A stretch of DNA of 64,000 nt from Anoxybacterium hadale (GTDB taxonomy: Bacteria; Bacillota; Clostridia; Peptostreptococcales; Anaerovoracaceae), in assembly GCF_015243575.1 (NCBI RefSeq), contig NZ_CP042469.1; one strand, 5' to 3'. The position numbers are program-made. This document shows, one piece after another, positions 36,001-39,000 of this stretch (positions are counted from its first letter, which is position 1; each line of letters opens with the position of its first letter).

Positions 36001-39000
36001 TTTTCCCCGACGCTCCTGGCAGATTTCCATAATGCTGCCGACATATTCTTTCGGAATCATTATGTCTGCTTTTACGATTGGTTCCTGAATGTGGTTGATC
36101 AATAGCGGTGACGGTAGATTAGAAGGATTCTGAATCATTTCTTCTGTTCCGTCATTCATCACAACCTTGTAGATTACGCTTGGCGAGGTTGTAATAATGC
36201 CGAGGTCGAATTCTCTCTCCAGTCTCTCCACGATGATTTCCATATGAAGAAGTCCCAAAAATCCGCATCGGAATCCGAAACCAAGCGCTGTGGAGGTTTC
36301 CGGTTCAAAATGGAAGGCCGCATCATTTACCTGCAGCTTTTCCAGCGCATCTTTGACGTTTTCGTATTTTTCCCCTTCTGCAGGATAGATACCGCAGTAA
36401 ACCATAGGCTGAACTTTTTTATAGCCGGGCAGAGGTTCTTCTGTGGGATCATGGTCCAATGTAATGGTATCTCCTACTCTGGCATCGGCAACCTGCTTAA
36501 TGCTGGCACAGATATAGCCTACCTCGCCGGCAGAAAGTTCGCTGACCGGCACGGGGCCCGGAGAATAAACGCCTACCTCTGTGACCTCATACTTCTTTTT
36601 CGTATTCATAAGGCGGATCAAATCACCCTTTTTAATCTTGCCGTCAAATACACGGGTGTAAATGACCACGCCTCGATAATTATCATAATAGGAGTCGAAG
36701 ATCAATGCCTTTAGTTTACCGCCTGCATCACCAGTTGGTGCCGGAACCTTTTCAACGACGGCTTCAAGAACATCCTCAATTCCGATCCCTTCCTTCGCCG
36801 AAATTAAAGGTGCATCATGGGCATCAATTCCAATGATATCTTCAATCTCCAGCTTCGCTTCATCAGGCCTAGCGCTTGCCAGATCGATTTTGTTAATTAC
36901 CGGAAGAATCTCAAGTTCCTCATCCAAAGCAAGATAAACGTTGGCAAGAGTTTGGGCTTCTACGCCTTGAGTTGCGTCCACAATGAGCACCGCGCCTTCA
37001 CAAGCTGCAAGACTTCTGGAAACTTCATACGTAAAGTCCACATGTCCAGGTGTATCAATGAGATTAAAGATATATTCGTTTCCGTTTTTTGCACGATAAG
37101 CAAGCCTTGTGGTCTGAAGCTTGATGGTTATTCCTCGTTCCCGTTCCAGATCCATGTTGTCCAAAAATTGCTCCTTCATCTCCCGGTGGGAAACGAGGCC
37201 TGTATTTTCAATGATACGGTCTGCCAGGGTGGATTTTCCGTGATCTATATGCGCTATAATGCAGAAATTTCTTATCAATTGCTGGTACGAATTCATTGTT
37301 CCTCCCAATATATTTTCAAATATTTCATATTTTGCTTTATATACAGCGTTTATTCTATCATCCGTGCAAATCGATGCTCCGATTTGCTTCACACCGATAC
37401 AATAAACGCATCTCGAAGGCAAAATTTCATATTTTGCTTCGTTTACAGCGTTCATTATAACACACCAGCAGTACCCTTTACAATATCTCTGTTTTAAATA
37501 CGTTATAGTCCCGTTCTGTTTCAACGATACCTAAGAATCCCTGAATTTCAGAAACGGCAGTGTCCAGTCCTGCTGTGACACTGCCGCTGAGTTCCTTCCA
37601 GTCTTCCTTCAGCTCGCTGATATTAATCGCCGCATTTTTTCCGAACATGGATAAGGTAAGGTAATCCGAATTGACTCTCCGGATCTGCAGTGTAATCTTG
37701 CCCGGTTGATCCATCATATCCGAATACGCTTCATCCACAGCTGTAAAGCCGTATACAGCTAAAAATACAAGAATAAATAGAATTGTTTTCTTTAATCTCA
37801 TGGTGTTGTTCCTCCAATCAGCTCTCCATAATGCAGAAAAGCTTCTGATTACAGCGCACTGATTCCTTTTCTTTTGTAGTTAGCAAACCGCTGACTCATT
37901 CCGTGCGCGCACTTCATTGAATCAGCGTTACCTTCGTATTTTTAAGTTTCTGCTTTAATTGTTGACTCTATTGATTTTCTTTAATTACTTCAGCCAATAC
38001 TTTCGCAAAATATTTTGCGGTTGTCTTTGTCTGTTCAATGGTATTCTCATTGTTCCCAACTTCAAGCAAAATAAGGTTGTCAGCTACATACTGGTTGAAT
38101 TTATAAGGTTTCTCAATAATCTTACCGCCAAATCCCGGATACATCTCTTCAGCTTTCTTATTAATTTTATTTGCAAATGAGCGAAGAGCTTCAACATTGG
38201 GATTGCCTGTTCCAATTACAAGGCTGTAACCAGCCATGGTTTCGCTATTTACACTGACGGTTTTCGCTACATTCCCAACATAACCTGCTGCATCTCTATG
38301 TAAGTCAATCACGATTTTATCCGAATCATAACTTGCCATCAAAGTCTTAATGGTCTCAAGTGATCTGGAGTAAGACTGATTATACGACGGAGAGTCGTGA
38401 AGAGTCTTATCGTGAACAACTTGAATTCCCATCTTGCGCAGTTCATCGGTCAGTACATCTCCAACCTCTCTGACCGTACCGTATTCTTTAAGAGAGTGGA
38501 AATTCCCTTCTGTTACCGGCTGGTAGGATTCTGTTGCATGGGTGTGGTAGATGATAACCACCGGTTTTTTCACATCTACATCAGCAGGAGTAGGGTTAGG
38601 AACCTCCGCTGTGATGCCGGAATCCGTGGTTTGTTCTGGACTAGGAGTACCGCTCTGATCAATGTCTTCAGGGGTGAAGAAATAACCCGGGTCTTCTTCC
38701 GCAAGATCATCATTTAGAACCTTTGCTCCAGGAAACATAGATCCCATCATTCCCTTCAGCAAACCAGAGGACTTTTCATTCTTCAAAGAGTCTGCTTCGC
38801 CTTTCTGATCCGGTAATGTTGCAAGAGCTTCTCTTGATTCAAAAGAACTCCTGCTTACAGTGGGAAAGATATTTCCGATGTACATCTTACCAACATCTTC
38901 TTTTTGTGCTTCAAACATCCCCAAGGGTCCGCCATGCATAAATGAAATCATAATAAAACCGGAGACAATCCAGAACAGTAAGGTCATGAATGCCAGTCTT

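Follow-up and report, generated by a model that had tools for sequence, protein, structure and literature searches.

A copy-number-variable cassette between direct -10 boxes upstream of lepA and other genes of Clostridia

Cassette copies in the Anoxybacterium hadale window

The DNA analyzed here, which we call the window, is one strand of 64,000 nucleotides (nt) from Anoxybacterium hadale (family Anaerovoracaceae), and our subject is a short palindrome-rich cassette that lies upstream of its lepA gene, whose product is 100% identical to an Anoxybacterium hadale protein. Described at its safest, this is a conserved, copy-number-variable cassette between direct -10 repeats, the upstream repeat being the ancestral promoter of the gene. 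One full and one partial copy (~1.4 units) occupy positions 37297-37478 on the minus strand, where a repeat finder reports an internal 42-nt direct repeat with copies 102 nt apart. An earlier note had pointed to this region as a structured lepA leader sharing its module with an array at 55.4 kb, before an unrelated Ldh_2 oxidoreductase gene; the sequence that it quoted lies on the minus strand at these positions, and the module is indeed common to both genes, with the same orientation towards each. The -35 hexamer of the lepA promoter, TTGTAA, overlaps the TAA stop codon of an upstream 107-amino acid (aa) open reading frame (ORF; 37478-37801), with 18 nt between this hexamer and the first extended -10 box. 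A longer lepA ORF of 679 aa (35485-37524) is artefactual, as had been suspected: the best 120 LepA homologues listed are almost all 603 aa long and start at the ATG at 37296. The features of the locus are:

37478-37483, minus strand: -35 hexamer TTGTAA of the ancestral lepA promoter, read from sequence and kept in relatives with and without a unit
37454-37464, minus strand: extended -10 box 1, TGTGTTATAAT, belonging to the ancestral lepA promoter and contributing the outer part of the P0 5' arm
37448-37459, minus strand: 5' arm of helix P0, TATAATGAACGC, from folding and from family covariation (alignment columns 18-31 with 93-106)
37419-37437, minus strand: P1 hairpin, GCAAAAT-ATGAA-ATTTTGC, from folding and covariation
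37398-37409, minus strand: 3' arm of P0, GCGTTTATTGTA, pairing with TATAATGAACGC, from folding and covariation
37384-37402, minus strand: conserved linker 19-mer, TTGTATCGGTGTGAAGCAA, reaching from the last bases of P0 to the first of P2, exact in 104 loci
37366-37387, minus strand: P2 hairpin, GCAAATCG-GAGCAT-CGATTTGC, from folding and covariation
37352-37361, minus strand: extended -10 box 2, ATGATAGAAT, gene-proximal and promoter-like, with ATGA and TAnAAT invariant across the family
about 37312-37351, minus strand: partial second unit of 40 nt, with AAACGC and the 5' half and loop of P1, decaying
35485-37296, minus strand: lepA coding sequence, 603 aa, with ribosome-binding site GGGAGG at 37301-37306 and ATG at 37294-37296

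As the note had also proposed, it is the partial second unit that supplies the TGATAGAAT box. Two further loci in the window carry the cassette, an array before the Ldh_2 gene at 55442-55715 on the plus strand (period 105, 2.6 copies, 98% matches by the repeat finder) and a truncated third copy:

55442-55546, plus strand: array unit 1, with -10 hexamer at 55447-55452, P1 at 55471-55491, linker from 55506 and P2 at 55522-55543
55547-55651, plus strand: array unit 2, with -10 hexamer at 55552-55557
55652-55715, plus strand: array unit 3, truncated, with -10 hexamer at 55657-55662, the 5' arm, P1, and the 3' arm hexamer ending GGCGTTC
55753-56859, plus strand: Ldh_2-family oxidoreductase gene (PF02615), downstream of the array
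33467-33534, minus strand: third copy, truncated, a 20-bit match to the covariance model described below, upstream of an ORF at 32776-33435

The first -10 box of array unit 1 corresponds to the Ldh_2 promoter of relatives, and the host leader follows directly after unit 3, a junction that we set by comparison with the empty site in three of them (L113-L115). The third copy consists of promoter, P0 and P1 only (TGTGATATAAT, 5' arm AAATGCG, P1 ACAAAATC/GATTTTGT and 3' arm CGCATTATTA), with linker, P2 and second -10 box missing. By GC skew the window is a single replichore, and the three cassette copies occupy both of its strands, each following its own gene.

The lepA and array units are 72-73% identical over 109 columns. 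The compensatory changes that had been claimed between them were found in P1 (T-A to C-G and C-G to T-A) and in P2 (G-C to A-T and C·A to T-A), together with a C to T change in P0 that yields G·U. Folded as RNA, each unit gave a z-score between -4.1 and -5.2, with 0/200 shuffles equally stable. A covariance model built from 77 family members scored the lepA and Ldh_2 loci at 115 and 110 bits (E ~1e-24), and with filters off there was no comparable score elsewhere in the window, the exceptions being a further unit of the array (54 bits) and, antisense to the array, a mirror match.

The window also has a 43-nt direct repeat (54473-54515 and 55330-55372, plus strand) next to two ORFs, one of them orthologous to a MerR-family gene in relatives. 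Each of its copies has a palindrome CACCAG..CTGGTG abutting a -10-like box (TGTTATAAT at 55352-55360) and then GGAGGG, an arrangement reminiscent of a MerR-type operator/promoter; directed towards the Ldh_2 array, the 55.35-kb copy could be a source of upstream transcripts there. Two simple tandem repeats were also noted in the window, one of 13 nt at 5333-5426 (~7 copies of TCTATGTTCTTAA, 72% matches, overlapping a 39-nt period) and one of 24 nt at 29656-29709 (2.2 copies, 89% matches, 12-nt sub-period).

Distribution and anatomy of the family

We scanned a collection with one genome per species for exact copies of the linker 19-mer and obtained 104 loci from roughly 45 Clostridia assemblies, against a chance expectation that we estimate at ~4 matches; one of the 104, L070, is a clear chance match. 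Carriers include Sedimentibacter, Tissierellia, Anaerovoracaceae, a Pseudobacteroides bin, an Oscillospiraceae bin and many further Clostridia, most of them with multiple loci per assembly and some with tandem arrays of period ~100. Searches of the whole window against Rfam 15 at gathering thresholds gave a T-box leader (RF00230, 62752-63017, plus strand, 107.6 bits) as the sole match and none for the cassette, and E-value scans of the lepA and Ldh_2 loci gave sub-threshold chance matches and nothing else. There was likewise no match in plasmids and phages (blastn of the array) or in viral contigs (exact-core scan), and these searches showed no sign of a known insertion-sequence end, of which the element might have been a remnant. 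Searching papers by sequence returned unrelated polymerase chain reaction primers only, and in keyword searches the family was undescribed. The cassette is thus a previously uncatalogued family in Clostridia, absent from the catalogues searched.

The main alignment, from which the covariance model was built, comprised 77 units. Each begins after a variable upstream flank with TRTGnTATAAT, a 6-7-nt arm and a short joint with a near-invariant G, and continues with P1, a joint, the complementary arm, ATTGTATC, GGTGTGAA, P2 and AC-TT-ATGATAnAAT, so that the unit is bounded by two direct copies of TRTGnTATAAT. The 5' arm of P0 is the first -10 box plus the following 6-7 nt, the P1 stem is family-wide an A-run paired with a T-run, and the linker ATTGTATCGGTGTGAAGCAA, between the P0 and P2 helices, is almost invariant. 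All three helices were supported by covariation: in P0, 96.8% of cells were paired and six pairs had changed on both sides, the corresponding values being 84% and five for P1 and 92.6% and four for P2. None of 500 shuffles reached the observed values, with 15 covarying pairs in all, and slid controls were just 33-48% paired.

A second, independent set was assembled from metagenome units anchored elsewhere in the unit (TTGCACTTATGATATAAT) and aligned to the model. About half of its 95 distinct matches were family members, 25 of them with the exact 19-mer and most of the others one base off (ATTGAATC..., ..CAGTGTG..), and the linker was near-invariant even with the search anchored on another part of the unit. 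Covariation in P0, P1 and P2 was replicated in this set, whose alignment was fitted to the model structure and is hence biased towards it. With 104 loci, a metagenome set and covariation in three helices, the concern that the similarity might be confined to one genome can be set aside. Among the variants, the ATTGAATC subfamily has broken outer P0 pairs, and five loci (L133, L152, L206, L091, L022) have a collapsed P0/P1 palindrome, with box 1 nearly fused to the linker or P0 closed by a triloop, which look like hairpin-mediated deletions.

TRTGnTATAAT is the extended -10 consensus of Gram-positive sigma-A promoters. Both cassette boxes match it, with little or no variation at the TG and at hexamer positions 1, 2, 4, 5 and 6 of either box. 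Immediately before the predicted start 72/77 units have a C, and the base that follows is mostly A, the preferred start context. Upstream of the first boxes the sole further signal was a TTG at 16-18 nt, in 32/88 first units, where we estimate a chance rate of ~5%. Both boxes, judged by sequence, look like real sigma-A promoters. For the second box we considered and rejected a -35 element, whose slot falls in the variable P2 loop, with TTGCAC only 6 nt away. In two loci (L040 and L013) the second box is missing, and the first must therefore drive the gene. Hexamer position 3 is T in 75/77 first boxes, where it is paired with a conserved G, whereas in second boxes it is T in 53/77 and varies as in ordinary -10 hexamers; because it is fixed in the one and variable in the other, P0 constrains the first box.

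The cassette nearly always points at a gene that starts shortly past its last box. The nearest downstream long ORF was co-oriented in 87 cases and not in 14, whereas the upstream gene was co-directional in 50 and divergent in 49, and the start codon typically lies 45-125 nt past the 19-mer, that is, about 20-80 nt from the second box. The downstream genes have unrelated housekeeping functions and no uniting pathway; from their N-termini we take them to include lepA, typA, glutaminyl-tRNA synthetase, Lrp/AsnC regulators, dihydroorotase-like amidohydrolases, rluB, pcrA, greA, murA, tmk, thyA, murI, alr, proA, proB, nth and response regulators.

A conserved unpaired linker between covarying helices, folding z-scores of -4 to -5, a position always upstream of and co-oriented with a gene, and several, partly tandem copies per genome as for some riboswitches would all fit a cis-acting structured leader RNA (riboswitch-like, protein-binding or of the put type of processive antitermination), in which P1 and P2 fold, the linker is the binding site and a broad gene set is controlled. 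The loci lacking a second box add to this, since there the distal promoter drives the gene through the leader. However, the best-conserved helix, P0, contains its own -10 box: its 5' arm coincides with positions -14 to -1 of the promoter itself, ending at the conserved C(-1)A(+1), and therefore lies outside any transcript from that promoter. Upstream read-through RNA was rejected as the source of P0, since the helix is as intact beside divergent upstream genes (6.2/7 pairs, n=40) as beside co-directional ones (6.4/7, n=45) and a further extended -10 box lies within 215 nt upstream in only 5/91 first units. RNA helices normally show more G·U than A·C, but G·U was not favored over A·C in any helix (G·U/A·C counts, leaving out the invariant T·G pair, of 16/9, 18/30 and 10/10 for P0, P1 and P2 in the main set and of 4/9, 5/6 and 3/4 in the metagenome set), and the two strands did not differ in how well they fold with DNA parameters; as there are few mismatches of any sort, we regard these two results as suggestive rather than conclusive evidence against an RNA. 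The sense strand has no terminator (no U-tract) after P0/P1 or P2 and no sequestration of the ribosome-binding site, the downstream genes share no pathway, there is no Rfam family match and, as described below, whole units are dispensable in close relatives. We consider such a leader RNA unlikely to be the explanation. With P0 upstream of the predicted start and no excess of G·U over A·C, a structured leader RNA from the lepA region is not established, and the earlier note's claim to that effect is not supported in the form in which it was made.

Several narrower RNA readings were tried and rejected. A terminator role for P0/P1 or P2 fails for want of a sense-strand U-tract, only P1 being terminator-like, and that on the antisense strand. 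An alternative helix P0', between the 3' arm and the second box, always allows its inner 8 base pairs, but pairing in the outer 6 drops to ~65% and the substitutions there look like the drift of a decaying duplicate. CUUAUGA and GAA flank helices as in a hammerhead, yet space for stem I is lacking and no model matched; the strands at the P2 junction do not fit the G·A/A·G pattern of a K-turn; and a leader peptide was dismissed because conservation does not extend to the ATG before P1 and ATGATATAA is simply the box itself. An independent multicopy small-RNA gene acting in trans with the linker as seed would account for the presence of a promoter, a pair of hairpins and a stretch of conserved single-stranded sequence, and multicopy and tandem small RNAs are known. 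The strict placement and orientation just upstream of start codons, the lack of a terminator after P2 and the direct passage of the unit into the next promoter box and gene make this extremely unlikely.

The constraint that P0 places on position 3 of the first box, its conservation whatever the upstream transcription, the coincidence of its 5' arm with the region melted in the open complex (-14 to +1) and the persistence of promoter, P0 and P1 alone at 33.5 kb would in turn fit a switch at the DNA level. Here an extruded or single-stranded P0/P1, for example under supercoiling, would sequester the distal -10, or the 3' arm of the nascent RNA would pair with the opened non-template strand, making the distal promoter condition-sensitive and the proximal box constitutive. 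The non-complementary 7-nt joints between P0 and P1 would, however, block cruciform branch migration, the ATTGAATC subfamily has lost its outer P0 pairs, and no precedent was found in the searches made; we rate this switch as very unlikely.

Gain, loss and replacement of units

The order spoIIP, 107-aa gene, lepA, hemN-like gene is common to the relatives, and the lepA promoter TTGTAA-N17/18-TRTGnTATAAT is kept in all those examined. The following lines give, for each relative, LepA identity to the window and what lies between promoter and gene:

L097, LepA 99%: 1.4 units, the same as in the window
L120, LepA 98%: exactly one 102-nt unit fewer than in the window
L109, LepA 96%: after the box only GAACGCAAT left (GAACGC arm)
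L105, L106, L107, L110 and L112, LepA 89-94%: no unit; promoter, then a short leader
L108 (Clostridium aminobutyricum), LepA 89%: an expanded and diverged form that shares the GAACGC arms

Among the lepA orthologues of the relatives examined, only that of the 99% relative carries the element, with the diverged form in Clostridium aminobutyricum; the rest have the ancestral promoter and lack the unit. A box orthologous to lepA box 1 is present in the unit-less L105, L106, L107, L109 and L120, and the partial second unit of the window is colinear with the entire lepA leader of L120. At Ldh_2, a 96% relative has TATGGTATAAT followed directly by a homologous leader (AATC...TTACAAA..CAGGAGGCAAG) with no unit, where the window has 2.6 units between TATAAT and that same leader. 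Because relatives keep their promoters without the unit, in one case through a clean 102-nt deletion, the upstream box at lepA and at Ldh_2 is each gene's ancestral promoter. Three of the five unit-less lepA leaders have an unrelated 5'-proximal hairpin of their own right after the promoter (L112 1415-1500, with AAAAGAATC..GATTCTTTT; L107 1429-1500; L106 1407-1500), and a 5' hairpin seems to be a general feature of these lepA leaders.

Between close relatives, then, whole units are present, absent, multiplied or replaced. Replacement is seen at the 33.5-kb locus, where the orthologous site holds a decayed full unit in L120 and an intact one in L037, another Anaerovoracaceae genome; against L120 the flanks are identical and the interior is different, with other arms and a compensated P1. 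Copies in the same genome are more alike than copies before the same gene in different genomes: in five other genomes the units of one genome were 0.79-0.97 identical, where the median over all pairs was 0.70 and the A. hadale pair, an exception, reached 0.72. The sequence of the P0 arms goes with the genome and not with the gene.

The left junction at lepA, as at Ldh_2, directly follows the host TATAAT, and the element ends in the same box as its target. Taken with hairpins that fold as DNA on either strand without an RNA-type wobble bias, genome-specific stems and head-to-tail arrays, this could indicate a miniature non-autonomous single-stranded-DNA transposon (IS200/IS605- or REP-like), whose hairpins a tyrosine HUH enzyme would recognize and whose ATTGTATC would pair with the TATAAT target for insertion 3' of the box, its own terminal box regenerating the target and so giving rise to arrays. 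The right junctions differ, however, lying mid-P1 at lepA and past the 3' arm at Ldh_2, which fits unequal exchange better than precise transposition; the indels are whole repeat periods. Further evidence against a transposon comes from the low copy number, the absence from phage, plasmid and viral collections, the three window copies that follow their genes on both strands of one replichore, and a non-palindromic linker conserved across orders. The atypical copy L093, the one neighborhood inspected for this, has metabolic-gene neighbors and no transposase or autonomous partner, and a second match in L013, considered as an autonomous partner, is merely another decayed copy. We find a transposon of this kind distinctly improbable.

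We favor instead a copy-number-variable family of mobile promoter/leader cassettes with turnover by recombination anchored in the -10 box, a mechanism that we infer, and give this reading an even chance of being right. Each ~100-nt unit is best read, from its sequence, as adding a single sigma-A promoter of the extended -10 type together with several palindromes. Units would be gained, lost and homogenized by recombination or template switching in the common -10 box: unequal exchange between boxes or units would make and collapse arrays, and short-homology recombination or template switching in the box would seed and replace copies. Each unit would add a start site, and copy number could thereby tune transcription of the downstream gene. 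Transcripts from the distal box are predicted to start at the conserved CA just past the P0 5' arm and would carry P1, linker and P2 as a structured leader. P0 would pair the promoter's own -14 to +1 with a segment ~45 nt downstream, and in a first unit it could form only in DNA or in RNA from upstream; it may be maintained as DNA, its hairpin-prone palindromes promoting the recombination or its structure modulating the first promoter. The linker, which on DNA would lie at -57 to -39 from the predicted start of the second promoter, may be maintained by a factor acting in trans.

Several considerations weigh against this reading. Promoter activity, start sites and the dosage effect are all deduced from sequence; the 9-11 nt shared in the -10 box are few for RecA-type recombination, and first acquisition by a naive promoter is left unexplained; and promoter supply alone does not explain a near-perfect P0 in first units. 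Conservation of the linker across orders would be unusual for a selfish or neutral repeat and implies a function that the model does not name, although ascertainment by the exact 19-mer inflates this apparent conservation, which the differently anchored metagenome set corrects in part. The number of exact-core copies per genome, ~3-10, is like that of a regulon and unlike that of a typical miniature transposon. A self-propagating promoter module would be another way to account for such a unit: ATTGTATC and the variable hexamer would pair with the -10/discriminator strand of a promoter and guide the module into promoters throughout the genome, or the nascent leader or a DNA hairpin would feed back on its own promoter. 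We found no described precedent for nucleic-acid-guided action on a sigma-A -10 element, and hold this module to be a doubtful proposition with little likelihood.

If the favored reading is right, many anaerobic Clostridia would share a portable unit that adds promoters stepwise before core genes (lepA, typA, tRNA synthetase genes, murA, pcrA), and its gain and loss between near-identical strains would be a route for rapid rewiring of expression. The near-invariant linker across orders would point to a factor acting on it. The cassette also calls for caution in that covariation alone is insufficient for calling riboswitch-like RNAs: the best-supported helix here includes untranscribed promoter DNA, and the substitution pattern in the helices is symmetric between strands.

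Comparison with known systems

Putative mobile promoters are homologous 50-100-nt upstream sequences that carry promoter motifs before non-homologous genes, and their spread has been ascribed to mobile elements, to non-autonomous elements emulating inverted repeats or to recombination (Matus-Garcia, Nijveen, van Passel 2012, PMC3488235). The cassette resembles them in being a homologous sequence with promoter motifs before non-homologous genes; that class, however, is defined by similarity and has no common anatomy (PMC3488235), whereas the cassette has a fixed architecture, forms tandem arrays and is conserved across orders rather than within single genomes. Measured by the identity used for mobile promoters (at least 80% over 50-100 nt), copies before unrelated genes in JAUNPN, RGIG9115 and AS22 reach median within-genome identities of 0.90, 0.97 and 0.85, while the A. 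hadale lepA/Ldh_2 pair, at 72-73%, falls below it. The cassette fits this operational class.

Tandem riboswitches and leaders (e.g. T-box, glycine) likewise have repeated structured units upstream of a gene and unpaired conserved nucleotides between covarying helices. In contrast to them, each cassette unit has a promoter of its own, part of its main helix is promoter DNA that is not transcribed, and an expression platform, a coherent regulon and an Rfam match are all lacking. REP/BIME and IS200/IS605-derived palindromes share with the cassette drifting yet complementary palindromes, genome-specific variants and folding of single-stranded DNA, and the cassette has hairpins, a left junction after TATAAT at two loci and variable right junctions. 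These elements are mostly found downstream of genes or without a fixed orientation, have no promoter and are tied to a RAYT/TnpA enzyme; the cassette, by contrast, follows the orientation of its gene, and no such enzyme was found near the one atypical copy inspected.

Correia elements of Neisseria end on both sides in 26-bp terminal inverted repeats, duplicate a TA target and, in their long form, contain an IHF site. They are described as ~100-150-bp intergenic repeats whose inverted repeats can form a hairpin, which create promoters at their ends, alter the expression of adjacent genes and differ between strains in presence and absence (PMC2649163). They appear closest to the cassette in working, both being short intergenic repeats with hairpins, with promoters (predicted ones in the cassette) and with variable presence. 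The two differ in that there is no sequence relation, the inverted repeat of the cassette (P0) is internal with direct -10 repeats as bounds, no target duplication was seen between empty and filled sites at lepA and Ldh_2, and copies number about ten rather than hundreds. What is unusual in the cassette is a helix that includes its own -10 box, direct -10 repeats as the bounds of the unit and conservation across orders.

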